NCBI RefSeq assembly: GCF_054482595.1
Contig: NZ_CM137008.1
Direction: 5' to 3' (one strand)
DNA: 64,000 bases
Shown here: positions 48,229-64,000 of the stretch, one piece after another
Position numbering within the stretch: the first letter of the stretch is position 1
How the letters are laid out: the number at the start of each line of letters is the position of its first letter
Made by a program: the position numbers and the translations under genes
Notes under the pieces: generated by a model
Seen by the model: the letters and a program-made list of their open reading frames with translations, nothing else
Told to the model about the DNA's origin: nothing
Database searches by the model: none

Positions 48229-48236
48229 GGGATTTT

Positions 48237-48285
48237 TGGTCGGCACGAGAGGATTTGAACCTCCGACCCCCGACACCCCATGACG
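48237..48285 (-). other. Prophage attachment core: 3'-terminal ~49 nt of tRNA-Pro (proL-type), not a complete tRNA
   Basis: Minus strand reads CGTCATGGGGTGTCGGGGGTCGGAGGTTCAAATCCTCTCGTGCCGACCA (anticodon-stem to CCA end) but the expected 5' half (CGGCACG acceptor arm) is absent; sequence diverges into AT-rich phage DNA. Confidence 0.8.
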
Positions 48286-48654
48286 CCGCTTGAAAAATGC
48301 TGAGAACCGCGCAATCGCTGGTGGTAGGTACTATTCGCATGTATAAACAAACAGTGCTTTTTTAGCAAAATCCGTTCTATATACATCAATGACTTAGGTG
48401 GTGGTTTCTCCCCATGCCACAAGTAGTGTTGAGCTTTACTGAAGCCACTCCATTGGCCTCTACATGGAAACTAACAAGAAAATGTCAGTTGAAGGAGTTT
48501 TATAAATTCATGTTTTCTTCTTCAGGACAACCCATCACCCGCAGGCACCGCCTGCGGGAATTTTGCGACTGTGTTCGTTTTAAATTATAGATGCATCACC
48601 TGATATTCGTGACATACAAACTATGCATTAGCCAGATCTATACTGGATAAGTAT

Positions 48655-50406
48655 TCATTCTAATGCCTTCTCAATGTTTGTATTTATTTCTGATAAACTA
48701 TTAATTACACCGTCAAATACAAAATCAAGAGCGTTACTATAACCAATTGCTAAAGTAGCTGAATCAAATCCTAGTTTTGCTAAATGCTCAATTGATTTGT
48801 TTACTGCTTCATGAGCTTCAGCATTTCTTAAATCATTATTTATAAAAAACGATGCCACTTTTTTATTTTGAGTTTTAAAATCTGCAAATTCTGTGGCGTG
48901 CTTAAGTACAGATGAGTCTTCATTCTGTTCAATAATTGGCTCGATAAGGTTAAGTAATGATTGAAGTAGTTTCAGAGTTTGGAATTTTTCGATGTCTGAT
49001 TTATTAACACCCATTGCAATTAATAATTTTTTTAAAGAGCCTGATTTAATCTTATTTAAAATCTCATTAATAGTCTTACATCTATTCAAAAAATCCGGTT
49101 CTTGCATGTCATTTGGCGCAACAAATGCTAGCTTCTGCAATACTGGATAGTTAGAGATTCCTTCTGATTCTAACTCTGTGCGATTAATTTCTAAAATGTC
49201 TGCATTGGATAAAGTAACACCAATACTTCTACCAAGTGCTACAAGATTATCGCTAAGTCTTGCTAGTTCTCTAGCGAATTTAAATGTTTTAGATACAATA
49301 TGTTCTCCGCTTAAATCATTTTCAGTGATTTGGTTTGGATCCTTAGCATAATCAAAAACATGATAAACCTCCTCTTCAGGAATTCCTCGATACAGCTCAT
49401 AAAACGGAATTCTGACTAAGTTTCTTCCAACCCTGATGCAATCCCTAAAGGACCATTGTCCACCGTAGCTTGGAGCAACCCTATAAGAATAGCCGTCATA
49501 AAATGGAATAGCATCATATGAAGAATCTTTTTCATATTTAGTAAGGAAAGAGTCATTAACCAAGACATATTCATTGTTTCTGATGTCTTTGGCTCTTGAA
49601 CTCGTCATAGGAGTATCATATCCCGGCCATATTAATTCATCTATATTTAATTTTTTACAAAGTTCAGGCTGAACAGATTGTACACTTCCCCATGCTTGCA
49701 ATAATATATTGTCCCCATTATCTACTATCTCAAAATCTATCCAAGGCAAATCAAACTTGAAATGTTTTGACCCAGACAATAAGTTAATTACTTCCGTCGT
49801 TCTTTGAATACGTGCTTCATAGTAAAAAACACGTACACCAACATAATTTCTCATCCAGAGGTATTTTCTTAGATAATCATTACGCATTGTCCATTTTACA
49901 TCTTTATTACTTCTAAAGTAATACTCGCTTGACACATCCCCTTGTGCGACTCCATAATCGGGCAAGCTTACCTCATCGAAAATGACTTTTTGCTCAGTGT
50001 CACCTATAAGTCTGGGTTTTAGACCAAGCATCATCCATACATCTTCAGCTAAAAAAAATGAAAAGTGAGAACTATCACCCCAAGAAGCTACAATATACTT
50101 ATAACCTGAAATTGATAAACTATAATCTCTTGCTCCGCCTTTAGACCTACAGTCAGGAGTCGAAAATGAAACTAAACCATTAGTAGACTCCTGGAGAACT
50201 TTGATATTATTGATATCTTCTTGTGGTACGGTAGCCATTGTCATATGAGCACACTCATGATTATCTTTAAAAAGATTTTTTTCGTATCTATGTGTGACAA
50301 TGACCTCTTTCTGTGGATTAGTAATATCCTCTATAGATAATAAATCTTTAAGACCTTGAGGGATCTGATCTACTGGTAAAGGTAATTGTGATATATAGTC
50401 AATCAT
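48655..50406 (-). CDS. Hypothetical 583-aa cargo protein (no TM, no recognised NTPase motif), C-terminal Rx4H (HEPN-like) motif; candidate defence/abortive-infection gene
   Basis: Long clean ORF, visibly AT-rich, own ~320-bp AT-rich upstream region, located between att core and int. Confidence 0.7.
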   Translation of the reverse strand: MIDYISQLPLPVDQIPQGLKDLLSIEDITNPQKEVIVTHRYEKNLFKDNHECAHMTMATVPQEDINNIKVLQESTNGLVSFSTPDCRSKGGARDYSLSISGYKYIVASWGDSSHFSFFLAEDVWMMLGLKPRLIGDTEQKVIFDEVSLPDYGVAQGDVSSEYYFRSNKDVKWTMRNDYLRKYLWMRNYVGVRVFYYEARIQRTTEVINLLSGSKHFKFDLPWIDFEIVDNGDNILLQAWGSVQSVQPELCKKLNIDELIWPGYDTPMTSSRAKDIRNNEYVLVNDSFLTKYEKDSSYDAIPFYDGYSYRVAPSYGGQWSFRDCIRVGRNLVRIPFYELYRGIPEEEVYHVFDYAKDPNQITENDLSGEHIVSKTFKFARELARLSDNLVALGRSIGVTLSNADILEINRTELESEGISNYPVLQKLAFVAPNDMQEPDFLNRCKTINEILNKIKSGSLKKLLIAMGVNKSDIEKFQTLKLLQSLLNLIEPIIEQNEDSSVLKHATEFADFKTQNKKVASFFINNDLRNAEAHEAVNKSIEHLAKLGFDSATLAIGYSNALDFVFDGVINSLSEINTNIEKALE

Positions 50407-50728
50407 TATAATTTATGCCTTCTATGCTCAGTATTAAATTAAATATTAAATCGAAGTCATCCCCTTGGCAACCTAAATCGTTTGCTGCTAGTACTTCAGT
50501 GTAAGATTAATTATGCAATAGTTTGCAATTGAAATATCTTAAGCTGTAGAAAAATCAATCATACTGATACCTTTTACTTAAGTTTCACTCCTAGGCATGA
50601 TGAACGCTTCCTCAAGATACAGTATTACGCTATGCCTGCAACTTTCACTTGTGGCATAGTAAACCTTTCAATTTAGGTTTAGCCCTGTATAGTAGTAATG
50701 CACGCTTCAAATCTGAGCTAATAAAATT

Positions 50729-51913
50729 TTAACTGGCTTTAATTTCTCCATGTGGTACGACAACCCAATCAATATGGTTTTGCGTATAAATCTTGGTTGA
50801 CTTGGAGTCGCTGTGCGCCATTCGTGCTTGCGGATCGATACCTTGCTGATCGAAAAGATACGCTGCTAATGCTCTAATTTCGTGAAAGGTTGGTCTTTCA
50901 TCTATCGGTAGATTGTCGCATAAACCTAGCTTGTCACGTGTGGCTGAAAACGACCGGCTCAAATAGTCCGGTGCAACTTGAGTAGGGTGTGAAACCTCTT
51001 TGCTGCGTTTAACCTGCCGTTCAGGGATCCTGTGAACGACAAACGGACTGGCCACATTATCTCGGCTATCATCAATTATTCGTTTCAACTCTTCACCAAT
51101 CGGTATTGCAACGTGTGATGCCTCTTTTTTTTGCACTTTTTGCCTGTGGATGTAAAGCGTCCCATATATGCCATTTTGTGGTTGTTCGAACCAGACACAT
51201 CCACATATACCGTCTTTAGGTTCGCGAATTGAGTAACGGATTCGCGATACTTCGAGTCGTGCATGTGTAGTCTGCAATGCTAGGTCCATTGCTGTTCTTA
51301 ACCATGGTGCAGCGGCCTGCCTGATAGCTATAAAATGCTCGAGTGACAGGCGCCGTCTTTTCTTCTCATCAGTCCTACGCATTTTTTTTCTGATGGCCGG
51401 GTTATCCAGCATTAGTGATTCATCGACCGCATAAGAGAACAACTTTTTAAGGAAGCTGACCTTTCTGTTCTGCACATTTGCGGATGCGCAGGCATGATAT
51501 TTATTGATGTAGGTATTAACGTGTTCAAGTGCAATATCGCATGCTGGAACATTTACGAAAAACGCTTTTACGCGTAGAGCGTCATTTTTCCAGTCATCTA
51601 AGGTGCTCTGGGAAGGACGTTCGTCTTCGATAATCCGGGTCATTATGTGATCAACATGTTCAGCAAATGGTTTTGCTTCTCCGATAACACCGCCAGATTC
51701 TCTAATAAGATTATCTACTGATGGAGATAATTCTGGTCGCATCCTCAGGTTGTACTCTCTGGCGATTGCAATGGCTATTGCCCTATCCTTACCTATATTT
51801 TTCTTCTTTCCGGTAATAAGTGTGAATTTATAAACACCTCGATCTTTATCAAAAATCAGATAATCAGGAAGATGTCTGTATTCTTTTTTACGTGGCCTTG
51901 CCGCCATGGTCAC
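50729..51913 (-). CDS. int: Phage integrase, tyrosine recombinase
   Basis: 394 aa; C-terminal catalytic region with HEIRALAAYL (HxxR) and STKIYTQ (Tyr); overlaps xis. Confidence 0.92.
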   Translation of the reverse strand: MTMAARPRKKEYRHLPDYLIFDKDRGVYKFTLITGKKKNIGKDRAIAIAIAREYNLRMRPELSPSVDNLIRESGGVIGEAKPFAEHVDHIMTRIIEDERPSQSTLDDWKNDALRVKAFFVNVPACDIALEHVNTYINKYHACASANVQNRKVSFLKKLFSYAVDESLMLDNPAIRKKMRRTDEKKRRRLSLEHFIAIRQAAAPWLRTAMDLALQTTHARLEVSRIRYSIREPKDGICGCVWFEQPQNGIYGTLYIHRQKVQKKEASHVAIPIGEELKRIIDDSRDNVASPFVVHRIPERQVKRSKEVSHPTQVAPDYLSRSFSATRDKLGLCDNLPIDERPTFHEIRALAAYLFDQQGIDPQARMAHSDSKSTKIYTQNHIDWVVVPHGEIKAS

Positions 51914-52119
51914 CCCTCATTTATTAACTTGCGAACAGCTTGACTAACCATTGAGTCGACTCCCCATTTTTCTGTTTCGCAGACAAAAACAGAACCGTCC
52001 ACGATGCGTCCCATGAGTAGACCGTTCTCGACCCAACGTTTTATCGTTCGGTTGTCAGGAATTGAGCCATTAGAGAATTCACGGCGTCCCCATTGGCTCG
52101 CTTTCATTAGTTTTGCCAT
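51910..52119 (-). CDS. xis: Excisionase (Xis-like)
   Basis: Small ORF overlapping int start by 4 nt; ...RTIKRWVENG... winged-helix excisionase motif; start at MAKLMK chosen (ORF-track start 52164 possible). Confidence 0.75.
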   Translation of the reverse strand: MAKLMKASQWGRREFSNGSIPDNRTIKRWVENGLLMGRIVDGSVFVCETEKWGVDSMVSQAVRKLINEG

Positions 52120-52180
52120 GGCTGTTTCTCCACTTAGCCCGCTGCACACGGGTAGTAATATCAAATTCCAGTCCTGATAA

Positions 52181-52396
52181 TTAATTTTGTTCTCTGGTTG
52201 CTACTTGTTTTATTGGCCTGATGCTGTCCAGGAGCAGACGGCGGCGCATGTTTGGCGCGCCCCAACGGTAACCAGTCTTTTTGTCGTAGGATTCACAACG
52301 TCCGACAACCCAGGAGGTTTCAGTGGAATGTAATTTCATCCGCTTTTCACCGTCTCGGGTGATAACAATTCCTGTATGAGTTTTTATCACGCTCAT
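52181..52396 (-). CDS. Hypothetical small phage protein (71 aa)
   Basis: ORF upstream of xis with RBS GGAGAATAAAAAATG; function unknown. Confidence 0.55.
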   Translation of the reverse strand: MSVIKTHTGIVITRDGEKRMKLHSTETSWVVGRCESYDKKTGYRWGAPNMRRRLLLDSIRPIKQVATREQN

Positions 52397-52920
52397 TTTT
52401 TATTCTCCGGTGCTTTCGGCATTACTGCCCAGTGGGTAATATTGACGTTTTCAAGGTCCCCGACCTGAAATGTCCACTGCCATTCTCCGGTTTCTTTTTG
52501 CCCCCAATGTGTACCAGAGAGAACGCCAGCCAATCAGCCAGCCTTCTCCATTAGCATCAAATAACAGAACACTTTCATGTCTGTTTTGTAAAAAGGACGG
52601 TACCAGCCGGAAGCAAGGGTACAAGCTGGTACCTCCAAGACTACACACAGCATAAAGTTGTGGTGCCGGGTGCCTCCCGGTGCCTGGCGAAGGTTGCACA
52701 CCAGGCGGGTGGGTATCCACAGAAGGTCGACTGTCAGCCTCAACCTTTACCCGCGTGCGCTGAGCCGCATTCACCACAACGCTAAGGATTCTCTCTGGTT
52801 GAAAATACTTAGCTGTTATGTGCCTGCTTTTAGCCACATCAGGCGAGGTGGACCTAGTTATTCCCCAACAACAAGGATTTGGTTATTATGTAACCCTCCC
52901 CAACAACGATAAGGATTTAT

Positions 52921-53010
52921 ATGGAACGATGTGTAGATAAGTATGAGGAGAGGCATGTGCCGTTAAGGCAAAAGCCTCCAGTTCCTCCAAAACCACCCAA
53001 GGAAAACTGA
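52921..53010 (+). CDS. Putative 29-aa proline-rich leader peptide (MERCVDKYEERHVPLRQKPPVPPKPPKEN)
   Basis: AGGA RBS 5 nt upstream of ATG; stop 7 nt before the 164-aa ORF start; see findings. Confidence 0.35.
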   Translation: MERCVDKYEERHVPLRQKPPVPPKPPKEN

Positions 53011-53017
53011 GACTAAT

Positions 53018-53512
53018 ATGACCAGAGACGATTATAAATTTTATATTCACTACTCTTATGTATTGGAGAAGATGAATTACACGTTGTTAACTCGTATTGA
53101 TAAATTAATAACGTTGATGTTAATCGTTCTCGGTTTTTCAGTTTTCGCCCCGTACAGTAATTTATTTATTTTCGGTTTGTTTGTTGCCGTACTTTCGGTT
53201 CTTCAGTTGGTCTATCAGTTCGGCCAGGAGGCTGGGATGTCTAAAGAACAAGCGAGGCATTACAAAAGACTGCTGATTGAGTCTGATACTCTTTCTGAAG
53301 ATCAGTTGCAAGCTAGGTATTTAAAAATCCAAGATACCGATAGTAATCCATGGAAATCACTTGAACGAGCGGCTTTCATTCGGGCCTGCATTTTTGCTGG
53401 TGTTCCAACTAAGTACGATCTAACAACCAAAGAAAAATTTATTGCTTGGTGTGCGGGAGATCTACCTCTAGAGAATGAACTAACGGATATTAATGATGAC
53501 CAACAAGCATAA
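53018..53512 (+). CDS. Small membrane protein with two N-terminal TM helices; SieB-like position (superinfection exclusion candidate)
   Basis: 164 aa, AT-rich, hydrophobic segments LITLMLIVLGFSVFAPY and LFIFGLFVAVLSVLQLVY; sits between early-left region and cI on opposite strand. Confidence 0.65.
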   Translation: MTRDDYKFYIHYSYVLEKMNYTLLTRIDKLITLMLIVLGFSVFAPYSNLFIFGLFVAVLSVLQLVYQFGQEAGMSKEQARHYKRLLIESDTLSEDQLQARYLKIQDTDSNPWKSLERAAFIRACIFAGVPTKYDLTTKEKFIAWCAGDLPLENELTDINDDQQA

Positions 53513-53567
53513 TCCAGTTCACGGACATGTACCTCCGAAGCCGAAACCACCGAAACCGAAGAAATGA
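53496..53567 (+). CDS. Putative 23-aa proline-rich micro-ORF (MTNKHNPVHGHVPPKPKPPKPKK)
   Basis: ATG overlapping the 3' end of the 164-aa ORF; see findings. Confidence 0.3.
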   Translation: MTNKHNPVHGHVPPKPKPPKPKK

Positions 53568-53586
53568 GACATAATAGGATTGGATA

Positions 53587-53655
53587 ATGAGTCGACCAAT
53601 AGAGCCTTTTCATATTCCACCTCGTCCCAGGCCACCAGATCCAGGCCCAAAGTGA
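53587..53655 (+). CDS. Putative 22-aa proline-rich micro-ORF (MSRPIEPFHIPPRPRPPDPGPK)
   Basis: AGGA RBS 7 nt upstream; followed by terminator hairpin. Confidence 0.3.
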   Translation: MSRPIEPFHIPPRPRPPDPGPK

Positions 53656-53678
53656 GGGTTACTGATTTTTAAAGAGCG

Positions 53679-53703
53679 AAGCGTCCGGTAGGGCGCTTTT
53701 TTG
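53679..53703 (+). terminator. Rho-independent terminator closing the membrane-protein/micro-ORF unit
   Basis: AAGCGTCC-GGTA-GGGCGCTT hairpin (one G-U pair) followed by TTTTTT. Confidence 0.6.
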
Positions 53704-53817
53704 TTGCTAACGAATCATCTTGGACTTCATATGCCCCAGGCGGCTACTTCGTGAGCGTCCTGCCTGTTTGTTGTTTCTCTTGGGTACATTATGTATCTCA
53801 AAGGTACATTGTCAAGC

Positions 53818-53842
53818 ATAAAAAAACCTGCCGAAGCAGGTT
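53818..53842 (-). terminator. Rho-independent terminator downstream of cI
   Basis: Minus strand AACCTGC-TTCG-GCAGGTT followed by U-run. Confidence 0.65.
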
Positions 53843-53854
53843 CATAAACATTGA

Positions 53855-54529
53855 TTAGGCTTTGATTTTGTATCTTCTTGGTTTTCCTGAGAAAATCACA
53901 GTACCAATTATAGAGCAATTACCGTTGATCTTAATGTAAGGCTCAGGCCAGTTTGGGTTTAACGCTTTGAGATAACGCTGTGTCCCATCTTCTATCAACC
54001 TTTTGAAGGTGGTTTCACCTGTATCGTGCATCAATGCAATAACGTCGTCACCGTGGCAGGCAGGTACTTCAGGATCGACAAAAATCATGTCTCCCGGGCG
54101 GTACTCATCAATCATTGAATCACCTATCACCCGCAAGATATAAGTCATTTCCCCACAGGGTACAGGGCAGGGATACGTTTCTGCTGTGCTCAAATCAACC
54201 TCAGAATATCCAACTTCTTTCCATGCTCCGGCCTGTACCCATGATATGACAGGGACTAATGTGATTTGTTTATTAGTGATTGAAACATCAGGTTTTTTTG
54301 TGATGTTCGTTGTCTGGTGTTCTTGATCGAGCCATCCGACAGGCAGGTCGAAACATTTTTCGATGTGTCGTGCCATGCTGTCACCGATATTTTTAGTAGC
54401 ACCATCTCCCATAAACCTGCTGGTTTGGGTTGGCTCGCGATCAATCATAGTGGCAAAGGAAGAATTCCCGCCAACACCATCTCTCAGTTTTCTGGCGTTA
54501 GACCGCCGGATGTCATGGATTGTTTTCAT
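53855..54529 (-). CDS. Phage repressor CI-like (HTH plus S24 LexA-type autopeptidase domain)
   Basis: 224 aa; C-terminal ...VIGDSMIDEYRPGDMIFVDPE... S24 Ser/Lys peptidase signature; divergent from cro-like gene. Confidence 0.88.
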   Translation of the reverse strand: MKTIHDIRRSNARKLRDGVGGNSSFATMIDREPTQTSRFMGDGATKNIGDSMARHIEKCFDLPVGWLDQEHQTTNITKKPDVSITNKQITLVPVISWVQAGAWKEVGYSEVDLSTAETYPCPVPCGEMTYILRVIGDSMIDEYRPGDMIFVDPEVPACHGDDVIALMHDTGETTFKRLIEDGTQRYLKALNPNWPEPYIKINGNCSIIGTVIFSGKPRRYKIKA

Positions 54530-54544
54530 AACGAAATTAAAACC

Positions 54545-54565
54545 CTTGTACCGTTAAGGTACAAG
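54545..54565. promoter_or_regulatory. Operator-like perfect palindrome CTTGTACC-GTTAA-GGTACAAG in cI/cro intergenic
   Basis: Read directly; GGTAC(A) half-sites recur near 54607, 53776, 53800 and 52617. Confidence 0.6.
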
Positions 54566-54569
54566 TATC

Positions 54570-54597
54570 TTGAAGGTTCATTTTAATCATGTAATAT
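54570..54597 (+). promoter_or_regulatory. Candidate pR-like sigma70 promoter (TTGAAG-N16-TAATAT) for cro-like gene
   Basis: -35/-10 hexamers adjacent to operator palindrome, GGAGG RBS downstream. Confidence 0.5.
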
Positions 54598-54619
54598 GTA
54601 TACCGGAGGTACATATTGT

Positions 54620-54820
54620 ATGAAAGCGTATTGGGACTCTTTAACCAAAGAACAGCAGGGCGAGTTGGCCGGAAAAGTTGGCTCAACACCTGGCTACTTA
54701 CGGCTGGTTTTCAATGGCTATAAAAAAGCCAGTTTTGTGCTGGCTAAAAAACTTGAGCAATGCACGTCAGGTGCAATTACGAAATCTGACTTAAGACCGG
54801 ATATCTATCCGAAAGATTAG
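54620..54820 (+). CDS. Cro/YdaS-like small HTH regulator
   Basis: 66 aa from MKAYWDSL; position and size; ORF-track start 54596 lies upstream of predicted -10. Confidence 0.75.
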   Translation: MKAYWDSLTKEQQGELAGKVGSTPGYLRLVFNGYKKASFVLAKKLEQCTSGAITKSDLRPDIYPKD

Positions 54821-54851
54821 CAGAACACTTTCAATTTTTAACCACAGAACG

Positions 54852-55415
54852 ATGAGGCTAATCGTGGGTAAGCATCACTGGAAAATAGAAAAACAGCCTG
54901 AGTGGTACATGAAAGCTGTCAGAAAAACTATCGCGGCGTTGCCGGGTGGTTACGCTGAAGCCGCTGACTGGCTGGATGTAACAGAGAACGCATTATTTAA
55001 CCGCCTTCGTGCCGATGGCGATCAGATTTTCCCGCTGGGATGGGCAATGATTTTGCAACGTGCTGGTGGAACTCACTTCATTGCTGATGCTGTGGCGCAG
55101 TCTGCAAATGGCGTCTTTGTGTCTCTTCCTGACGTCGAGGATGTGGACAACGCCGATATTAACCAGCGTCTGCTGGAAGTCATTGAACAGATTGGCAGTT
55201 ATTCAAAACAGATTCGTTCAGCAATCGAAGACGGTGTAGTGGAACCGCATGAGAAGACAGCAATTAATGACGAGCTGTACCTCTCAATTTCGAAGCTGCA
55301 GGAGCATGCAGCACTGGTCTACAAAATTTTTTGCATTTCAGAAAGTAATGACGCCCGCGAGTGTGCAGCTCCGGGCGCCGTGGCGTGTCGTGACTGTGGA
55401 GAAACTAACGCATGA
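54852..55415 (+). CDS. Hypothetical early protein in CII/YdaT position (possibly CP76-type CII-like regulator)
   Basis: 187 aa ORF directly after cro-like gene; family assignment tentative. Confidence 0.6.
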
Positions 55416-55750
55416 ACAGTTTAACAACACATTACCGTCGCTCGCAACTGATTGCACTTCCTGTACCGGGTGGAAAAGCGAAGGTGGAGTATTGCTATGC
55501 AGTGAATGTACCAGGTGACAGGGAAATTGTAACCCACAGCTTTGCAGAGTGGGCTGTGGGCGATTTCAACCGGCAAAAGGAGACAGTCCTTTGCGACAAG
55601 TTAACCGCTGGTTCAAAGATCACTACGGAGTGCCCGTCAGAGTCATTCGTTGGGAGCCGGAAACACAACGGGTTATCTACCTCCGCGAAGGCTATGAGCA
55701 TGAGTGCTTCAGCCCGCTCGAACAGTTTCGTCGTAAATTCAGGGAAATAG
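55412..55750 (+). CDS. Hypothetical protein; overlaps alternative frame 55549..55770 (possible frameshift or overlapping genes)
   Basis: ATGA-coupled to upstream gene; second frame is ATGA-coupled to downstream replication gene. Confidence 0.4.
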
Positions 55751-55759
55751 AGGTCGGTC

Positions 55760-56701
55760 ATGAGCACTAAATTAACCGGCTATGTATGGGATGGTTGCGC
55801 TGCGTCAGGCATGAAGTTATCCAGCGTGGCAATTATGGCCCGCCTGGCTGATTTCAGTAATGACGAAGGTGTGTGCTGGCCATCAATTGAAACCATTGCC
55901 CGCCAGATTGGCGCGGGGATGAGCACCGTCAGAACGGCTATCGCACGGCTGGAAGCAGAAGGCTGGTTAACTCGTAAGGCGCGTCGCCAGGGTAACCGCA
56001 ATGCGTCGAATGTTTATCAGCTTAACGTTGCGAAGCTTCAGGCAGCGGCATTTTCTCAACTGTCAGATTCTGACCCGTCAAAATCTGACGCATCAAAATC
56101 TGACCCGTCAAAATTTGATGCGTCGAAATCTGGCAAAAAAGCGGGTTTTCACCCGTCAGAATCTGGCGGGGATCCGTCAGTAAAATCAAAACATGATCCG
56201 TCAGATAAAAAAAACTCTCGTCCGGACGCTTCGCAACCGGACACGCAGATGGATGAACAGGATTTTTTAACTCGCCATCCTGATGCGGTTGTATTCAGCC
56301 CTAAAAAGCGCCAGTGGGGGACGCAGGATGATTTGACCTGCGCACAGTGGCTCTGGAAAAAAATCATCGCCCTGTACGAGCAGGCTGCCGAATGTGACGG
56401 CGAGGTGGTTCGTCCCAAAGAACCGAACTGGACAGCCTGGGCAAACGAAATTCGCCTGATGTGTGTGCAGGATGGTCGTACTCACAAACAAATCTGCGAG
56501 ATGTACAGCCGCGTCAGCCGCGATCCGTTCTGGTGCCGTAACGTGCTCAGCCCGTCGAAGCTGCGGGAAAAATGGGATGAGCTTTCCCTGCGCTTATCGC
56601 CGTCCGTAAGCACGTACACCGAAAAACGCGAAGACCCGTACTTCAAATCCAGTTACGACAACGTGGACTACAGCCAGATCCCGGCAGGATTCAGGGGGTG
56701 A
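55760..56701 (+). CDS. Phage replication initiator (O-like, N-terminal winged-helix DNA-binding domain) containing iteron array
   Basis: 313 aa; N-terminal HTH-like region; internal SDSDPSKSDASKSDPSKFDASKSG repeats encoded by DNA direct repeats. Confidence 0.7.
   Translation: MSTKLTGYVWDGCAASGMKLSSVAIMARLADFSNDEGVCWPSIETIARQIGAGMSTVRTAIARLEAEGWLTRKARRQGNRNASNVYQLNVAKLQAAAFSQLSDSDPSKSDASKSDPSKFDASKSGKKAGFHPSESGGDPSVKSKHDPSDKKNSRPDASQPDTQMDEQDFLTRHPDAVVFSPKKRQWGTQDDLTCAQWLWKKIIALYEQAAECDGEVVRPKEPNWTAWANEIRLMCVQDGRTHKQICEMYSRVSRDPFWCRNVLSPSKLREKWDELSLRLSPSVSTYTEKREDPYFKSSYDNVDYSQIPAGFRG
56062..56215. repeat. Iteron-like direct repeats (~15-nt CGTCA(A/G)AATCTGAC units, about 8 copies): candidate phage replication origin
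   Basis: Tandem near-identical units read directly inside replication gene, as in lambda O/ori. Confidence 0.6.
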
Positions 56702-57192
56702 TCATGAGTCTTTTGAATGACGTTCAGAAATTCATTGAAGCCCATCCGGGGTGTACTTCCGGAGACATTGCGGATGCTTTTGCTGGTTACTCACGGCAGC
56801 GCGTTCTGCAGTCAGCAAGCAAGTTACGTCAGAGTGGGCGTGTGGCTCACCGTTGTGAAGGGGATACACGCAGACATTTCCCGCGCCTGACTGAGAGAGC
56901 GCAGGAACTGGAACCACAACCAGTTCGAGAAACCAGATCTGTGCGCAATTTCTATGTCGGCACTAACGATCCCCGGGTGATTTTGTGCCTGACCCGCCAG
57001 GCTGAAAAACTGGAGTCCAGGGGCTTATACCGTCGTGCTGCAACGGTGTGGATGGCGGCATTCCGTGAAAGCCACTCCCAGCCAGAACGAAACAATTTTC
57101 TGGCGCGTCGTGAGCAGTGTTTACGGAAAAGCAGCAAGCGCGCTGTATCGAGTGATGAGTGGTATCTGTCAGGGAATTACGTGGGGGCGTAA
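56698..57192 (+). CDS. Hypothetical phage protein (tentative PerC/ANR-like C-terminal motif)
   Basis: 164 aa ORF coupled to neighbours; motif LESRGLYRRAATVWMAAF; no Walker motif so not a DnaC-type loader. Confidence 0.55.
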   Translation: MIMSLLNDVQKFIEAHPGCTSGDIADAFAGYSRQRVLQSASKLRQSGRVAHRCEGDTRRHFPRLTERAQELEPQPVRETRSVRNFYVGTNDPRVILCLTRQAEKLESRGLYRRAATVWMAAFRESHSQPERNNFLARREQCLRKSSKRAVSSDEWYLSGNYVGA

Positions 57193-57518
57193 TGACGACG
57201 TTAACTCAATGCCAGCAGCAGGTGCTGGATATGCTGATTTCTTATCAGAAAGAGCGTGGCTTTCCGCCAACCAATCAGGAGGTGGCAACCATGCTGGGAT
57301 ACCGTTCAGTGAATGCAGCGGTAGAGCATCTTCGCGCACTGGAGAAAAAAGGCGTCATCACGATAAAGCGTGGCGTGGCCCGGGGGATAACGCTTCATAC
57401 CGCGGTGAAGGACGACGACAGCGAGGCGGTCGGGATTATCCGCGCACTGCTTGCCGGTGAGGAAAACGCAAGGCTGCGTGCAACCCACTGGTTACATGAG
57501 AGGGGCCTGAAAGTATGA
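57192..57518 (+). CDS. LexA N-terminal DNA-binding domain protein (no peptidase domain)
   Basis: QQQVLDMLISYQKERGFPPTNQEVATMLGYRSVNAAVEHLRALEKKGVI parallels LexA N-terminal winged helix (QQEVFDLI...GMPPTRAEIA...[21 protein letters not shown]). Confidence 0.75.
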   Translation: MTTLTQCQQQVLDMLISYQKERGFPPTNQEVATMLGYRSVNAAVEHLRALEKKGVITIKRGVARGITLHTAVKDDDSEAVGIIRALLAGEENARLRATHWLHERGLKV

Positions 57519-57904
57519 AGCTGATCCTGCCTTTTCCGCCCAGCGTGAACACGTACTGGCGACACCCCAACAAAGGGGCGTTTGCTGGTAAGAGCCTGAT
57601 AAGCGCGGCGGGGCGAAAATTCCAGAGCGCGGCGTGTGCAGCAATAGTTGAGCAGTTACGTCGTCTGCCGAAACCAACGTCGGCACCTGCTTCAGTGGAG
57701 ATCGTGTTGTTTCCTCCGGATAACCGGATCCGCGATCTGGACAACTATAACAAGGCGCTGTTTGACGCCCTGACCCACGCGGGTGTGTGGGAAGACGACA
57801 GCCAGGTGAAAAGAATGTTGGTGGAGTGGGGACCGGTTATCCCGGAAGGGAAGGTCGAGATCACTATCAGTAAGTACGAGAAAACGGCGGGTGCAGCCGC
57901 CTGA
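57515..57904 (+). CDS. rusA: Holliday junction resolvase RusA
   Basis: 129 aa; LPFPPSVNTYWRH...DLDNYNKALFDALT motif typical of RusA. Confidence 0.88.
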   Translation: MKLILPFPPSVNTYWRHPNKGAFAGKSLISAAGRKFQSAACAAIVEQLRRLPKPTSAPASVEIVLFPPDNRIRDLDNYNKALFDALTHAGVWEDDSQVKRMLVEWGPVIPEGKVEITISKYEKTAGAAA

Positions 57905-57923
57905 TCAAGAGGAGAAACGAAGT

Positions 57924-58721
57924 ATGAATAATCTGATGGTCATTGATGGTATTGAAGTTCGTCGTGATGCTTATGGGCGTTACAGCCTGAACGATCTGCA
58001 CAGGGCTGCCGGTTCTCTGGATAAGCATAAGCCTGCATTCTGGCTCCGCAATGAGCAAACTGAACGTTTAATAAGCGAGTTGCAGATTTGCAACTCGGTC
58101 AATATAGAGCCAGTTAACGTTATTCGCGGCGGAAATAATCAGGGGACGTATGTCTGTAAGGAACTGGTGTATGCCTATGCAATGTGGATCAGCCCGTCAT
58201 TCCATCTGAAGGTGATCCGTACTTTCGACATGGTAACCAGCGCACCGGAAAAATTATCCGGACAGGCTGCTGACAAGATGCAGGCTGGAGTGATTCTGCT
58301 GGACTTTATGCGTCGGGAGTTAAACCTGTCTAACTCATCTGTGCTTGGGGCCTGTCAAAAACTCCAGGAGGCTGTTGGCTTACCGAATCTGGCACCGCGC
58401 TATGCCATTGATGCTCCTGCTGATGCACACGATGGCTCAAGTCGCCCCACGCTGTCGCTGAGTGCACTGCTGAAGCAGTATGGTATCCGCCTGACGGCTA
58501 ATCAGGCATATCACCAGATGGTGAAGCTGGGGATCGTTGAACAACGCGAACGATACAGCCGTACCGCGATTAACAACATCAAAAAATTCTGGTCGCTGAC
58601 AGCGAAAGGCTGCATGTTCGGCAAGAACATCACCAGTCCCGCAAATCCGCGCGAGACGCAGCCGCATTTCTTCGAATCCCGATTCCCTGAGCTGTTAAAG
58701 CTGCTCGATACCGTTCATTGA
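57924..58721 (+). CDS. KilA-N domain protein (antirepressor-like)
   Basis: MNNLMVIDGIEVRRDAYGRYSLNDLHRAAG...KPAFWLRNEQT N-terminal KilA-N signature. Confidence 0.75.
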   Translation: MNNLMVIDGIEVRRDAYGRYSLNDLHRAAGSLDKHKPAFWLRNEQTERLISELQICNSVNIEPVNVIRGGNNQGTYVCKELVYAYAMWISPSFHLKVIRTFDMVTSAPEKLSGQAADKMQAGVILLDFMRRELNLSNSSVLGACQKLQEAVGLPNLAPRYAIDAPADAHDGSSRPTLSLSALLKQYGIRLTANQAYHQMVKLGIVEQRERYSRTAINNIKKFWSLTAKGCMFGKNITSPANPRETQPHFFESRFPELLKLLDTVH

Positions 58722-58722
58722 G

Positions 58723-59718
58723 GTGACCGTGAGAGCACTACTGACCCCTGAAATTGCCCCGCGTATGGGGATCGTATTGTTCAGACCAGGTTCAGAACTG
58801 ATGCCCCTGTTTATGCAGGGGCGTGTCCTGCTGGAGCCTGAGCCGGAACGTTATTCATCTTTCGCCAGTGGTGCCGTTCCGGCAGCATCACAACCGCTGG
58901 CGGATGATCCTGCCGTTCGGGCCGTGTTCCGCAATGAGGCAGTGATCCGTCGTGCTGGTGGCGTGGAATGTCTTGAAAGCTGGTTACTTCGTGAAAAAGG
59001 CTGTCAGTGGCCTCACTCCGACTGGCACAGCGAAAACATGACCACAACGCGCCATGCGCCGGGCGCAATCCGTCTGTGCTGGCACTGCGATAACCAGTTG
59101 CGTGACCAGTTCACGGAACGGCTGGAATCAATGGCAACGGATAACTGTGCCCGCTGGGTGTTATCTGTTGTGCGCCGTGATCTCGGTTTTGATGATAGTC
59201 ACGTTGTGACAATGCCGGAACTGTGCTGGTGGCTGGTTCGTAATGACCTGGCGGATGCCTTACCGGAAAGTGCAGCCCGTAAGGCACTGAGATTACCGAA
59301 GCCTGTTGTGCCGTCTGTCACCCGGGAAAGTGACCTTGTTCCTTCGGTTCCTGCCACCAGCATCATCCAGGATAAGGCGAAAAAGGTGCTGGCGCTGAAA
59401 GTGGATCCGGAGTCACCGGAGTCTTTTATGTTACGCCCAAAACGTCGCCGCTGGGTTAATGAAAAGTACACGCGCTGGGTTAAGACACAGCCGTGTGCAT
59501 GTTGTGGAAAGCCCGCTGATGATCCCCACCACCTGATAGGCCATGGTCAGGGTGGAATGGGGACAAAAGCGCATGACCTCTTTGTGTTGCCTTTGTGCAG
59601 AAAGCATCACGACGAGCTGCATGCGGATACCGTGGCATTTGAAGAGATGTATGGCTCCCAGCTGGAGCTGATATTTCGTTTTATCGATCGTGCGCTGGCA
59701 ATTGGTGTGCTGGCCTGA
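58723..59718 (+). CDS. DUF968-family phage protein (YdfU-like)
   Basis: 331 aa; C-terminal Cys/His-rich CACCGKPADDPHHLIGHGQGGMGTKAHDLFVLPLCRKHHDELH. Confidence 0.7.
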   Translation: MTVRALLTPEIAPRMGIVLFRPGSELMPLFMQGRVLLEPEPERYSSFASGAVPAASQPLADDPAVRAVFRNEAVIRRAGGVECLESWLLREKGCQWPHSDWHSENMTTTRHAPGAIRLCWHCDNQLRDQFTERLESMATDNCARWVLSVVRRDLGFDDSHVVTMPELCWWLVRNDLADALPESAARKALRLPKPVVPSVTRESDLVPSVPATSIIQDKAKKVLALKVDPESPESFMLRPKRRRWVNEKYTRWVKTQPCACCGKPADDPHHLIGHGQGGMGTKAHDLFVLPLCRKHHDELHADTVAFEEMYGSQLELIFRFIDRALAIGVLA

Positions 59719-59720
59719 TT

Positions 59721-60083
59721 TTGTGGAGAAAGTTGATGCGTGATATGTATGAAGTAATGGATCGTTGGGGAGCTTGGGCTGCTTCAGACAATAGCGGAGT
59801 GGACTGGCAACCGGTAGCCGCTGGCTTCAAGGGACTTTTACCTCATGGCAAAAAGTCCCGGATTCAGTGTGATGATGACGAAGGCATTATGATAGACAGT
59901 TGTGTGGCTCGGTTGCGTAAATATAGGCCTGAAGAATATGAGCTAATCATTGCTCACTTTGTTATCGGTATCTCATTACGCACTATTGCGAAGAAGAGAA
60001 AATGCTCTGATGGGACTATAAGAAAAAAGTTGCAAGCTGCATTGGGATTTATTGATGCAGTTATATATATAATACATGGGTAA
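59721..60083 (+). CDS. Late-gene antiterminator Q (QuuD-type)
   Basis: 120 aa; DRWGAWAA...AAGFKGLL...KSR.QCDDD...CSDG... closely parallels QuuD-family Q proteins. Confidence 0.85.
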   Translation: MWRKLMRDMYEVMDRWGAWAASDNSGVDWQPVAAGFKGLLPHGKKSRIQCDDDEGIMIDSCVARLRKYRPEEYELIIAHFVIGISLRTIAKKRKCSDGTIRKKLQAALGFIDAVIYIIHG

Positions 60084-60090
60084 TTTATTA

Positions 60091-60109
60091 GACGGCCATA
60101 TTGGCCGTC
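60091..60109. terminator. Palindromic hairpin GACGGCC-ATATT-GGCCGTC between convergent Q and the antisense cassette
   Basis: Perfect 7-bp inverted repeat overlapping the cassette stop codon; no strong U-run. Confidence 0.4.
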
Positions 60110-61295
60110 AGCTAAATAAATATGTAATAGCATAAGGTGTAAGTAAAAAGTAGAATCTAAATGTAAGATATAAGCCACATAAAACTATAATTCCTAATGA
60201 GGCAAAAACAACTTTCTGAACAAGCAATCTTGTGGTTAAACTATCAAATGTATCCTTTATATCTTCGTAAATAGCCTTGAAGTTATATTCTGCTTGTTGT
60301 TTTTTATGATTTAACTCATCATTTATTGCTGTTAAAGTTTGCCATTGATTAAATAGAACAAATATAATCATAATAGTGAAGAACAATGCACCCAACACTA
60401 CAGCTGTGTTTATTAATGCTTGACTATCCCAACCATTAGCCTGCTTCATTTGAGTCGCAACGATAATTGTTGCGACGGGGATACCTAATATCTGATTTTG
60501 TATGTCACTGAATACTTTATGTATTTTCCCCATCTCTTCTATTTTGGCTACTCGTAACTGATCTAGTATTTTCTCGTAAGAAAAACCAGAAACGAATACT
60601 TTGTATCCTTTTTGATAACTTTCATAAAGTTGTCCTAAATCCCTTAACATGAAGGAAAAAGAGGTTTCTTTAGTTTTAGATTCACATGATGATTTTATAC
60701 TACTTGCTAAAATAGTAAGTTTTTGATCTTTATGCGTATCTTCTGCAAAGTTTGCGATCAAATTATGAATCAGATCTCCATTAACATTCATAAGATCATC
60801 GCTAGAATAATTTACTGGAATTTTTAGTACGTTGGATTCGACGAATACCAATTCAAAATTTGTTTCATCTAAATAAGCAGAACAATCTTTGAATAAAGTA
60901 ATTAAGCTCAAAACATCTCTGTACTTGGATATAATAGCAGGCGACTTTTTATCCCTGTTGTGATAATTAAGTTCGATTATAAAGAAGTTACTGGCTTCCT
61001 TTATCCTATTTTTAGGATTTTTTAAATACTCATTAAAAGAGAAATGTAGCTGCCCCAATCGTAATTTGGGGGGGGTTATATGTAAGGTTATAGTTTGGCC
61101 TAACTCAATGTTGCCAGATTCAAGGGTGATGCCAAAATCATGGGGATTCTCTGTGATATCGTTGATGATGTCACAGAGCTCCTCGTTTGAAAGAATGAGT
61201 GATGCTTCAGATAGGGTACCTGCAAATGTAGCGGCCTTGTAAATAGTCACTAAGTCTTTGAAGGTTCTCTGGTTTTTACTGCTCATCCTCTTCAC
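60108..61295 (-). CDS. Hypothetical 395-aa protein with two C-terminal TM helices; downstream gene of antisense two-gene moron
   Basis: Clean AT-rich ORF; hydrophobic segments ALINTAVVLGALFFTIMIIFVLF and VVFASLGIIVLCGLYLTFRFYFLL; overlaps upstream gene by 20 nt. Confidence 0.75.
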   Translation of the reverse strand: MKRMSSKNQRTFKDLVTIYKAATFAGTLSEASLILSNEELCDIINDITENPHDFGITLESGNIELGQTITLHITPPKLRLGQLHFSFNEYLKNPKNRIKEASNFFIIELNYHNRDKKSPAIISKYRDVLSLITLFKDCSAYLDETNFELVFVESNVLKIPVNYSSDDLMNVNGDLIHNLIANFAEDTHKDQKLTILASSIKSSCESKTKETSFSFMLRDLGQLYESYQKGYKVFVSGFSYEKILDQLRVAKIEEMGKIHKVFSDIQNQILGIPVATIIVATQMKQANGWDSQALINTAVVLGALFFTIMIIFVLFNQWQTLTAINDELNHKKQQAEYNFKAIYEDIKDTFDSLTTRLLVQKVVFASLGIIVLCGLYLTFRFYFLLTPYAITYLFS

Positions 61296-62310
61296 CTAAT
61301 TCTGATAAAATCTCTGATCTTAGCGTATCCGGAATCTCGGTAAGTATCAATTTATCGTTTTCTGAATCATAAAGAACGCTGCCATCATGCAAGGCCGCAC
61401 GCTCGAATTTCAGAGACCAATGTTTGGACTTTCCTTTGAAACTAACAAGCCCACGTATAACGTTGCCATCAGGCACGAACCCATCAGAGAACTCCAGATC
61501 GTCATTGGTTAACTTTTCAACTAACAACTCAGGAGCAGTTGGCCATATCTCGTTTGCAAAAATTTGAGTGTCGAAAGTTTCACCAGAACGATTTAAATTT
61601 TTTAATTTTTCATGAGCCTTATTTAGGAACTCTTCACGTGCCTCTGGTTCAAAACCTCTTTCAGTAGCAAATTCTAAAAGTGCATTCCGTAATTTTGTTG
61701 TTTCTTGTTTGGCAATTAGAATATCGTTGCAACCTAAAAACTTTTTGAAATAACCTGCTACTGAATTTTGCCCCTTTAGAAAGCTAATATATCTCTCTTT
61801 GCCATTCTGGCGCCCAGTTAAGTCAATTCGTCCCGCTACTCGAAGTTTAGCAATGTCTAGATATTCACTTTCTTGAATTTCAAAATCGTGGACTGAAGAG
61901 CCAACTGCTGAAGTTAGGATTGCAACCATCAAATAATGATTTCCATTTACCTCATTATGGGCAATTATTACATAACCACCAGTAGACATTGATTCATCAT
62001 CGGCTCTGGCTTTTAAATGATTGATCATTCGGATACTAGTATCATAAAAACTATGTGTTTTATTTACGAAATAATCATCAACGATATTACCCATAGGGTA
62101 ACTATCGCGGTCATCTTCAAATTTCCCATATCCTTTACCTGCTCTCCCAGAGTACCTTTCAGTAAGTGCGTTAGAGAGGTCTTTTGATGCTTGCTGAACA
62201 GGTTTTTCTGAAGGACAAGGAATAATGGTGGCTAACCCCTGTTGTTCCTTGTTCATAATGTGAACAATAAACTTATGAGTGATATTAGTGGGGGTCGCTG
62301 ATGCAGTCAT
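61276..62310 (-). CDS. Divergent NdpA/YejK-family (NA37) nucleoid-associated-like protein, prophage-encoded
   Basis: 344 aa; blocks GGYVIIAHNEV..YLMVAIL, GRIDLTGRQNGKERYISFLKGQ..VAGYFKKFLG parallel host YejK ([51 protein letters not shown]); RBS AGGA upstream. Confidence 0.75.
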   Translation of the reverse strand: MTASATPTNITHKFIVHIMNKEQQGLATIIPCPSEKPVQQASKDLSNALTERYSGRAGKGYGKFEDDRDSYPMGNIVDDYFVNKTHSFYDTSIRMINHLKARADDESMSTGGYVIIAHNEVNGNHYLMVAILTSAVGSSVHDFEIQESEYLDIAKLRVAGRIDLTGRQNGKERYISFLKGQNSVAGYFKKFLGCNDILIAKQETTKLRNALLEFATERGFEPEAREEFLNKAHEKLKNLNRSGETFDTQIFANEIWPTAPELLVEKLTNDDLEFSDGFVPDGNVIRGLVSFKGKSKHWSLKFERAALHDGSVLYDSENDKLILTEIPDTLRSEILSELGEEDEQ

Positions 62311-62426
62311 AACAACATCCTTTTAATGGTTTTGAACAATTGGTGTTGATAATACTTCAAAAAATACTAATGCGTACGCAAAAAATACAGTACTCTGTTA
62401 AGAGTGGTTACTTCGCCACACAGCTT

Positions 62427-62456
62427 AAACCCGCCGTTGAGCGGGTTTTGTCGTTT
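62427..62456 (+). terminator. tR'-like Rho-independent terminator upstream of lysis genes
   Basis: AACCCGC-CGTTGA-GCGGGTT hairpin followed by TTGTCGTTT. Confidence 0.6.
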
Positions 62457-62600
62457 CTGGGGCTGGGGATTCGTTGGTCCTGGTCTATTCCGCAGTTATC
62501 CATTGGTTCGGCTTCTTTGACGTTTCCGCTTCTAATTTGCTGTACATGATGTTCCCTCAATTTGCACCTGCTGTATCAGCGAGGTGAGAGATAACTACAA

Positions 62601-62927
62601 ATGCCTCATAACCCAAATACCTGGCTGGAGTTGGTCCAGAGCTGGTGGCGTGGAGACACACCACTGGGCGCAGTGATTATGTCGATCGTTATGGCTGGCT
62701 TGCGCATTGCCTATTTTGGCGGTGGTGGTGGCTGGAAGCGAAAAACGCTTGAGATTTTACTCTGTGGCGCTCTGACGCTGACATTTGCATCCGCGCTTGA
62801 GTATGTCGGATGGCCTAAATCACTATCTGTTGCCATTGGTGGTGGGGTGGGGCTGATCGGTGTCGATGCTATTCGTGGGGCTGCAATGCGAGTAATCGGT
62901 AACAAGTTTGGTGGCTCTAAGGAGTAA
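62601..62927 (+). CDS. Holin (class I, S-like)
   Basis: 108 aa, three hydrophobic segments, Gly-rich, immediately upstream of endolysin. Confidence 0.8.
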   Translation: MPHNPNTWLELVQSWWRGDTPLGAVIMSIVMAGLRIAYFGGGGGWKRKTLEILLCGALTLTFASALEYVGWPKSLSVAIGGGVGLIGVDAIRGAAMRVIGNKFGGSKE

Positions 62928-62930
62928 TTT

Positions 62931-63407
62931 ATGCAGGTACTAAATTCCCAGCGTAAAGCTTTTCTCGATATGTTGGCGTGGTCAGAAGGAACGGATAACG
63001 GGCGACAGCCAACCCGCAATCACGGCTACGACGTTATTGTAGGTGGTGAGCTATTCACGGATTACTCCGATCATCCTCGCAAACTTGTCACGCTAAACCC
63101 GCAACTTAAATCAACCGCAGCTGGACGTTACCAGCTTCTTTCCCGTTGGTGGGATGCCTACCGCAAGCAGCTTGGCCTGAAAGACTTCTCTCCGAAAAAC
63201 CAGGACGCTGTTGCACTGCAGCAGATTAAGGAGCGTGGCGCTTTACCGATGATTGATCGCGGTGATATCCGTCAGGCTATCGACCGTTGCAGCAATATCT
63301 GGGCTTCACTGCCGGGCGCTGGTTATGGCCAGTTCGAGCATAAGGCTGACAGCCTGATTGCAAAATTCAAAGAAGCAGGCGGAACGGTCAGAGAGATTGA
63401 GGTATGA
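62931..63407 (+). CDS. R: Endolysin R (lambda-type lytic transglycosylase)
   Basis: 158 aa near-identical to lambda R as recalled ([48 protein letters not shown]...). Confidence 0.95.
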
Positions 63408-63865
63408 GCAGATTAACCGCGATTATCTCCGCTCTGCTCATCTGCATCATCGTCTGCATGTCATTGGCTGTTAATCATTATCGTGATAACGCCATTACCT
63501 ACAAAGCCCAGCGCGACAAAAATGCCAGAGAACTGAAGCTGGCGAACGCGGCAATTACTGACATGCAGGTGCGCCAACGTGATGTCGCTGCGCTCGATGC
63601 AAAATACACGAAGGAGTTAGCTGATGCGAAAGCTGAAAATGATGCTCTGCGTGATGATGTTGCCGCTGGTCGTCGTCGGTTGCACATCAAAGCAGTCTGT
63701 CAGTCAGTGCGTGAAGCCACCACCGCCTCCGGCATGGATAATGCAGCCTCCCCCCGACTGGCAGACACCGCTGAACGGGATTATTTCACTCTCAGAGAGA
63801 GGCTGATCACTATGCAAAAACAACTGGAAGGAACCCAGAAGTATATTAATGAGCAGTGCAGATAG
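63404..63865 (+). CDS. Rz: i-spanin Rz
   Basis: 153 aa near-identical to lambda Rz; N-terminal TM. Confidence 0.95.
63624..63806 (+). CDS. Rz1: o-spanin Rz1 (embedded in Rz, +1 frame)
   Basis: 60 aa lipoprotein [22 protein letters not shown]... with PPPPP tract, nested in Rz. Confidence 0.9.
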
Positions 63866-64000
63866 AGCTGCCCATATCGATGGGCAACTCATGCAATTAT
63901 TGTGAGCAATACACCCGCGCTTCCAGCGGAGTATAAATGCCTAAAGTAATAAAACCGAGCAATCCATTTACGAATGTTTGCTGGGTTTCTGTTTTAACAA

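Follow-up and report, generated by a model that had tools for sequence, protein, structure and literature searches.

A divergent relative of the DS-1 anti-phage system in an Escherichia coli prophage

DS-1 (working id D390) is the two-gene, experimentally validated system 1 of DefensePredictor (bioRxiv January 2025; Science 2026; PMC13092281). It consists of DS-1A (WP_000355468.1, 391 aa), which joins a zinc ribbon to an NA37 domain, and DS-1B (WP_000150292.1, 404 aa). It was presented as the first YejK-domain defence system to have been validated, is marked 'replicated' in the accompanying tables, and gives -log efficiency of plating (EOP) values of 7.6 for Bas1, 2.7 for Bas26, 1.7 for Bas3, 1.7 for T3, 1.0 for T5 and 0.9 for T7 (PMC13092281). 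Here we analyze a distant relative of this system in a 64,000-nucleotide stretch of Escherichia coli DNA (the window; contig NZ_CM137008.1 of NCBI RefSeq assembly GCF_054482595.1), where a prophage carries a two-gene cassette that encodes an NA37-family nucleoid-associated protein (NAP) and a membrane protein, hereafter the partner.

A second group, the PANGU systems, comprises operons that encode a YejK-like NAP together with an effector (bioRxiv 10.64898/2026.04.06.716658, April 2026). In type II PANGU, designated 'Cluster 2' of the NAP operons, the NAP Pag2A is encoded with the transmembrane (TM) protein Pag2B, which has an acidic, cytoplasmic, 'DNA-mimicking' N-terminal domain and a C-terminal TM region (bioRxiv 10.64898/2026.04.06.716658). 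The E. coli type II system provides 3-4 logs of protection and requires both genes, neither of which is toxic alone; its growth curves are of the abortive type, with stunted growth at high multiplicity of infection (MOI). During T4 infection Pag2A leaves the nucleoid, and the N-terminal domain of Pag2B binds Pag2A with a dissociation constant (KD) of 19 nM. According to its authors type II PANGU does not count as a toxin-antitoxin system of the classical kind, and how Pag2B is activated was left open (bioRxiv 10.64898/2026.04.06.716658).

The prophage cassette resembles type II PANGU in having a YejK-like NAP, a bicistronic layout (a gap of <40 bp in PANGU, an 11-nt overlap here) and a partner with C-terminal TM segments, in its occurrence in E. 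coli, and in the proposed logic of a NAP sensor and a membrane effector. The likeness to the tested PANGU-Ecu operon drawn here is one of architecture. The two differ in that PANGU operons were picked for their proximity to known defence genes, with prophages unmentioned, whereas the cassette is a prophage moron, and in that the N-terminal domain of the cassette partner is just mildly acidic (pI 5.7) compared with the acidic domain of Pag2B. The housekeeping protein YejK/NdpA belongs, like the cassette NAP, to the full-length NA37 fold family; unlike YejK, the cassette NAP is prophage-encoded, AT-rich and always coupled to a membrane partner. Kiwa is a further two-gene defence system, in which the membrane protein KwaA is the sensor and the DNA-binding protein KwaB is the effector. 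Both Kiwa and the cassette combine a membrane protein with a DNA-binding protein, but their gene order and domain families differ.

We consider it likely, at a probability of roughly 0.7, that the cassette is a prophage-borne two-gene anti-phage system, composed of a NAP and a membrane effector, that is a divergent homologue of DS-1 with the architecture of type II PANGU. The initial annotation of this DNA had proposed an undescribed defence or exclusion system with a sensor and a membrane effector. That function and that logic stand as the best reading, given the homology of the two proteins to the validated pair of DS-1 and an architecture like that of type II PANGU. The word 'undescribed' does not: the pair matches a named system, DS-1 (NCBIfam NF053868/NF053869), at the level of distant homology, an outcome that the initial annotation had itself listed as refuting, and the type II PANGU architecture has also been published.

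Homology of both cassette proteins to DS-1

The cassette and its genes are laid out as follows.

60058..62360: the cassette as an exchange unit, 2,303 bp, GC 0.353; boundaries also backed by two related prophages, L019 (empty site) and L020 (another moron)
61276..62310, minus strand: NAP gene, 344 aa, WP_000127202.1; NA37/YejK-type, no N-terminal zinc ribbon
60108..61286, minus strand: partner gene, 392 aa, WP_052516676.1; DS-1B homologue, Pag2B-like; open reading frame (ORF) with the RefSeq start
61276..61286, minus strand: stop/start overlap of the NAP and partner genes, 11 nt, ATGAGCAGTAA; predicted translational coupling junction

The two minus-strand ORFs first called here, 61276..62310 (344 aa) and 60108..61295 (395 aa if a GTG start is used), were both recovered. 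The overlap of 20 nt that had been reported between them depends on that GTG. A better-supported start is the ATG at 61286, 9 nt downstream of the GTG, which is used by RefSeq, coincides with the residue at which all homologues begin, and is preceded, inside the end of the NAP gene, by an AGGTG Shine-Dalgarno sequence with a 6-nt spacer; with this start the overlap shrinks to 11 nt. The suggestion of translational coupling is retained, because comparable stop/start overlaps, 8-20 nt long, are seen in 13 related loci, which is most of them. The genes are AT-rich, as had been noted: the GC content of the cassette is 0.353, versus 0.50-0.51 in the prophage flanks, and local values are 0.30-0.41 over the two genes and 0.50-0.57 on either side. 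This region of the window is 99.4-100% identical in 15 of 5,426 complete E. coli genomes, in which RefSeq names the first product 'nucleoid-associated protein' and the second 'hypothetical protein'.

Assignment of the first protein to the NA37 family was borne out by a full-length match to Pfam NA37/PF04245 (E 9.4e-69, model positions 1-324 of 325). The protein also matches phrog_3767 and, in the PDB, YejK (9be2, E 1.7e-19). Against the NCBIfam YejK equivalog (NF001557) it scores 164.8 bits, over HMM positions 6-327 of 334, where the cut-off is 341; judged by this score, it is therefore not the housekeeping YejK orthologue. The NCBIfam model DS1_1_antiphage (NF053868) matches it with 56.2 bits (E 2.8e-15; cut-off 330), and BLASTP aligns it to DS-1A with 25% identity over 197 aa (E 3e-10). 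Whereas the NA37 domain of DS-1A spans residues 42-382 and follows an MDITCLECG...CDKCG motif, that of the cassette NAP begins at residue 15, and the cysteine pairs of a zinc ribbon (CxxC...CxxC) are absent. The ~40-aa zinc ribbon at the N-terminus of DS-1A is thus missing from the cassette NAP, whose NCBIfam scores place it nearer to housekeeping YejK (165 vs 56 bits). DefensePredictor Table S10 already contains this very protein, WP_000127202.1, under the label 'Putative novel defense gene' (log-odds 9.14; PMC13092281).

The partner has no significant match in Pfam and belongs to phrog_5023 (E 1e-79), a family to which no function is assigned there. The NCBIfam model DS1_2_antiphage (NF053869) matches residues 86-333 over profile positions 36-287 of 337, with 70.3 bits (E 1.5e-19; cut-off 315), and BLASTP against DS-1B gives 28% identity over 104 aa (E 4e-7). 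When the two families were compared with hhalign, the alignment extended over 346 columns, from residues 5-361 of the partner family to residues 3-368 of the DS-1B family, with a probability of 98.7% (E 3.5e-16). Both families contain the motifs D-x-H-K-x-(Q/E)-(K/R) and FS-x-x-K-I-L...I-P-x-A-x-I. These profile and motif matches identify the partner as a full-length homologue of DS-1B. Profile searches of both proteins had been suggested as a check of the initial annotation, and each protein matched its DS-1 model, although below the cut-off. PADLOC-DB v2.0.0 (2023), which is older than both DS-1 and PANGU, has no family at E <= 1 for either protein.

A C-terminal pair of membrane-spanning segments had been proposed for the partner, and hydropathy analysis agrees, placing strongly hydrophobic segments at ~291-313 and ~355-378 (peaks 2.76 and 2.26) together with a further conserved, moderately hydrophobic segment at ~264-280. 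An AlphaFold2 model built with 27 homologues (mean pLDDT 81) shows an alpha/beta N-terminal domain (1-215), a 52-residue stalk helix (217-268) and two very long helices (288-335 and 337-382). The N-terminal domain is mildly acidic (pI 5.7, net -5), and across the family these domains have a median pI of 5.06 and a median net charge of -7; the acidity is compatible with the DNA-mimicking (DMK) idea, but it is not distinctive and offers no proof of it. A search of PDB sequences with the partner profile returned nothing below E 0.8, and a Foldseek search of the PDB with the model found no relative (best E 0.42, TM <0.2). In AFDB50 there are 254 relatives, every one labelled 'phage-related membrane protein' or 'uncharacterized'. 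With a threshold of E <= 1e-3, a 50%-clustered library contains 1,103 representatives of the superfamily, and with E <= 1e-30 it contains 301; neither a Pfam model nor a solved structure was found for it in the Pfam, PDB sequence and Foldseek searches.

Set side by side, the cassette and DS-1 share the order of an NA37 gene followed by a gene for a ~400-aa partner with C-terminal hydrophobic helices, homology of both proteins, AT-richness, and an identical antisense slot in the same prophage family. They differ in that amino-acid identity is 25-28% over partial alignments, with no nucleotide similarity, and in that the cassette proteins score 5-6 times under the DS-1 equivalog cut-offs (56 vs 330 and 70 vs 315); on these scores we regard the pair as a relative of DS-1 and not an equivalog. 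The gene junction is an 11-nt overlap in the cassette and a 2-nt gap in DS-1. The cassette is the rarer of the two in E. coli, at 15 versus 106 of the 5,426 genomes. Its partner family gave more hits in a 90%-clustered database, 369 versus 69 for the DS-1B family.

Conserved pairing and exchange at the Q junction

The conservation of the pair was examined in one genome per species, which yielded 13 full-length partner loci, from Erwinia, Providencia, Pectobacterium, Mixta, Gallionella, Pseudomonas, Zoogloea, Aeromonas, Sideroxydans, Shewanella, Duganella, Acinetobacter and Lichenibacterium; a fourteenth, L015, is a fragment and was left out. The partner gene is also present in three phage records (Klebsiella phage Kp4865-4, Sinorhizobium phage phi2LM21 and a gut phage contig). 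An NA37 gene lies directly upstream, on the same strand, in 16/16 full-length loci, which span Gamma-, Beta- and Alphaproteobacteria and the three phages. Co-occurrence of the two genes in other genomes, a check proposed with the first annotation, is thus borne out in distant loci. Measured against the window pair, the identity of the NAP and that of the partner rise and fall together (Pearson r = 0.95, Spearman 0.92), a correlation that reflects shared descent besides any co-evolution. In phi2LM21, a temperate phage of an alphaproteobacterial host, the pair (p68/p67, L017:628-2806) stands beside genes for an adenine methyltransferase and a LigD/Ku-type ligase. Because phi2LM21 carries the same pair, the combination of NAP and partner is borne by very different phage lineages.

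The genomic contexts of the pair are of accessory type. It occupies the same antisense slot between Q and holin in an unrelated Salmonella lambdoid prophage, lies between dam and a holin gene in a Mu-like prophage, and in Gallionella sits in a chromosomal toxin-antitoxin islet, flanked by ParD and PemK-type genes. These last neighbours, and the character of the cassette as a two-gene, overlapping, AT-rich, mobile module, would also suit an addiction or toxin-antitoxin-like module that stabilizes the prophage and has no anti-phage specificity. We hold this to be extremely improbable: the genes of type II PANGU are individually non-toxic and its authors exclude a classical toxin-antitoxin system, and the DS-1 homologue gives phage-specific protection.

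The setting of the cassette in the window prophage is described by the following features.

59737..60083 (59721-60083 in the comparison with L026), plus strand: Q antiterminator gene (RefSeq 'antiterminator Q family protein'; PF06530 at the same position in related loci)
60091..60109: hairpin GACGGCCA-TAT-TGGCCGTC, read from the sequence, between the convergent Q and partner genes and overlapping the partner stop codon
62349..62376, minus strand: candidate cassette promoter TACGCA-16-TATTAT, from a relaxed consensus scan; weak, low confidence
62359..62449, plus strand: element of ~90 nt with a strong intrinsic terminator at its end (62427-62448, terminator scan), conserved in L019, L020 and L026
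62601..62927, plus strand: lambda-family holin gene, the first gene of the lysis cassette (ORF and RefSeq)

All flanking genes, namely DUF968, Q (ending at 60083), holin (from 62601), endolysin and Rz, are on the plus strand, opposite to the cassette, as had been reported. DS-1, too, runs antisense in this prophage family, placed between the Q gene and that of the lambda-family holin. Comparison by blastn of the window with a DS-1-bearing prophage, L026, gave 95-97% identity up to 60057 and again from 62361. Between these flanks lie the 2,303-bp window cassette in one case and a 2,458-bp DS-1 cassette in the other, with zero nucleotide similarity and a GC content of ~0.35 in both. Because DS-1 sits in the same slot, between Q and the presumed late promoter, of a 95-97% identical prophage, the window cassette and DS-1 are swapped alleles of one slot. 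The span first assigned to the cassette, 60084..62340, nearly equals the exchange unit defined by this comparison (60058..62360), and the description of a discrete antisense moron in the interval from Q to the lysis genes is confirmed by the related prophages.

The last ~9 codons of Q fall within the swapped segment, and the swap replaces the final ~20 residues of the protein, which ends in ...GFIDAVIYIIHG in the window and in ...GFVDGCLAMLAYSMA in the DS-1 prophage (L026:10373-10729). In L026 a 21-nt tail-to-tail overlap joins the genes for Q and DS-1B. The L019 prophage has an empty site, in which the ~90-nt element starts right at the Q stop codon, and in the L020 prophage the same junction holds an unrelated antisense gene:

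L020:2187-2633 (NZ_CP025920.1), minus strand: hypothetical protein of 148 aa, WP_001038608.1, at the same Q-to-late-promoter junction

This protein has no PADLOC or NCBIfam match and may be another uncharacterized moron of the swap site.

The ~90-nt element (GTTAAGAGTGGTTACTTCGCCACACAGCTTAAACCCGCCG..GAGCGGGTTTT) is common to prophages with different Q alleles, and from its position it is presumably the unit of late promoter, leader and terminator (pR'/tR'). An Rfam scan of 59000-64000 assigned no family to it, and no clear sigma-70 promoter was identified. With the cassette placed between Q and this putative late promoter, Q-modified late transcription would bypass the cassette. The hairpin at 60091..60109 may serve as a bidirectional terminator, to judge by its sequence and its place between the convergent genes. 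A standard consensus promoter scan found no cassette promoter; the DS-1 allele has TTGCGT-17-TAGAAT, with a good extended -10 and with its -35 in the shared flank, a far better match than the window's candidate.

The position of the pair next to the lysis cassette, in lambdoid and in Mu-like prophages, might instead reflect the prophage's own biology, either in lysis timing and induction, where a holin modulator would act with a DNA compactor, or in the maintenance of lysogeny; the build of the partner, a small-TM protein with long helices, would suit such a modulator. This seems very unlikely to us. Relative to the late operon the cassette is antisense, and it sits upstream of the late promoter/terminator unit; the sister prophage L019 is without it and L020 has an unrelated gene in its place, the pair also occurs outside prophages, next to toxin-antitoxin genes, and the DS-1 homologue protects from a plasmid in a prophage-free setting. 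Both a prophage function and an addiction function are disfavoured because the cassette is optional, swappable, antisense to and upstream of the late unit, and found outside prophages, and because DS-1 is active from a plasmid.

Proposed mechanism and evidence against it

The preferred reading, a defence system of NAP and membrane effector, builds on what is shown at these loci: the gene structure, the homology to DS-1A and DS-1B, the strict pairing with its co-variation, and the allelic exchange. Under this reading the operon would be expressed in the lysogen from a promoter of its own and not together with the phage late operon; it sits on the opposite strand, upstream of the late promoter. 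The YejK-like NAP would reside on the host nucleoid, from which it would be freed once a lytic, superinfecting phage breaks down or restructures the chromosome. Once free, the NAP would bind the 392-aa partner at its acidic N-terminal domain, on the cytoplasmic side; the C-terminal helices of the partner would hold it in the inner membrane, and the partner would turn on a toxic membrane activity, probably oligomerization and an ion leak. As a result the infected cell would be arrested and the infection aborted, and sister lysogens, with their prophage, would be protected. In this scheme the defence phenotype comes from the literature on DS-1, and NAP relocation, binding of NAP to partner, the requirement for two genes and the abortive phenotype come from that on type II PANGU; homology and architecture suggest that the window subfamily behaves in the same way. 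The effector is predicted to act by membrane permeabilization, a mode of action that is conjectural for PANGU as well.

Several observations weigh against this scheme. Both proteins score far under the NCBIfam equivalog cut-offs, at 25-28% identity to DS-1, and their function could have drifted; the NAP is without the DS-1A zinc ribbon; and the N-terminal domain of the window partner is just mildly acidic, as noted above. The cassette promoter is weak by consensus, and expression in the lysogen is thus only predicted. For the window subfamily the case for defence is drawn from homology, and the comparison with Pag2B is one of architecture. In addition, DS-1 blocks Bas1 very strongly and leaves no plaques, an outcome that an abortive mechanism triggered by genome degradation would not obviously produce.

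The complete loss of Bas1 plaques (-log EOP 7.6) fits direct immunity, and with it a Kiwa-like arrangement with exchanged roles, in which the membrane protein would sense phage DNA entry or an envelope perturbation and the NAP, as effector, would coat incoming phage DNA and stop it from being replicated or transcribed, leaving the cell alive. In the partner family, conservation is highest in a block made up of the juxta-membrane helix and the first hydrophobic segment, which would suit signal transduction of this kind. We nevertheless think such a reversal unlikely, since type II PANGU cells are stunted at high MOI and its NAP is released from the nucleoid, which points to a NAP sensor and an abortive outcome, and since PADLOC shows no similarity of either cassette protein to KwaA or KwaB.

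Within the favoured reading of a NAP sensor and a membrane effector, we tentatively raise the possibility that the subfamily is functionally distinct from DS-1, with a trigger or phage range of its own, that the diverged alleles are swapped at one fixed slot, between Q and the late promoter, as interchangeable immunity specificities, and that the partner is a new NAP-gated inner-membrane pore of CorA/ClyA-like build, in which a stalk helix connects a cytoplasmic alpha/beta domain with C-terminal TM helices. The kind of system is already known from publications, and this exact NAP protein had been flagged computationally. New relative to the literature consulted are the divergent subfamily itself, which has no zinc ribbon, lies far below the DS-1 cut-offs and has a partner family that gave 369 protein-cluster hits versus 69 for the DS-1B family; its strict pairing over three proteobacterial classes and phages; and the block exchange with DS-1 at one junction.

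Neighbouring cargo and implications

From 18839 to 48255 the window carries E. coli core genome (rcsC, rcsB, rcsD, ompC, ada-alkB, nap, ccm, narP and yejO), and the prophage abuts yejO; a search for tRNA genes at the left junction of the prophage found none. On the K-12 map, the housekeeping yejK presumably lies a few genes past yejO; the YejK paralogue of the prophage would then be near the host yejK, which is probably a coincidence. At the left end of the prophage, just outside the integrase gene, a gene at 48655-50406 (minus strand) encodes a 583-aa hypothetical protein, present in strain 50EVA as WP_192954900.1. This protein has no PADLOC or NCBIfam match and could be further accessory cargo.

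Colinearity of the window with strain 50EVA is limited to 48229-64000. Between yejO and the prophage, 50EVA has a ~20-kb integrative/mobilizable island, absent from the window, that carries 'ABC-three component system' genes. At L029:38661-41247 (minus strand) in this island, one gene with an HNH-effector-like N-terminus matches the PADLOC candidate PDC-M68A (E 2.5e-15), and its neighbour weakly matches LmuB and PDC-M68B.

These results bear on annotation, on the prophage slot and on the mechanism of this family. RefSeq, Pfam and PADLOC v2 leave the partner 'hypothetical', despite its membership in a superfamily (~1,100 clusters at 50% identity) that is strictly linked with a YejK-like gene and has a validated defence component among its homologues. 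The Q-to-late-promoter junction accepts DS-1, the window cassette, the 148-aa gene or nothing, and is therefore a place to seek more cargo. Finally, cassettes whose proteins are only ~25% identical, exchanged as blocks at one junction of prophages that are 95-97% identical, offer a natural comparison that could show whether divergence alters phage specificity, and the same comparison could help to explain how the membrane partner is activated, a question left open in the PANGU preprint.

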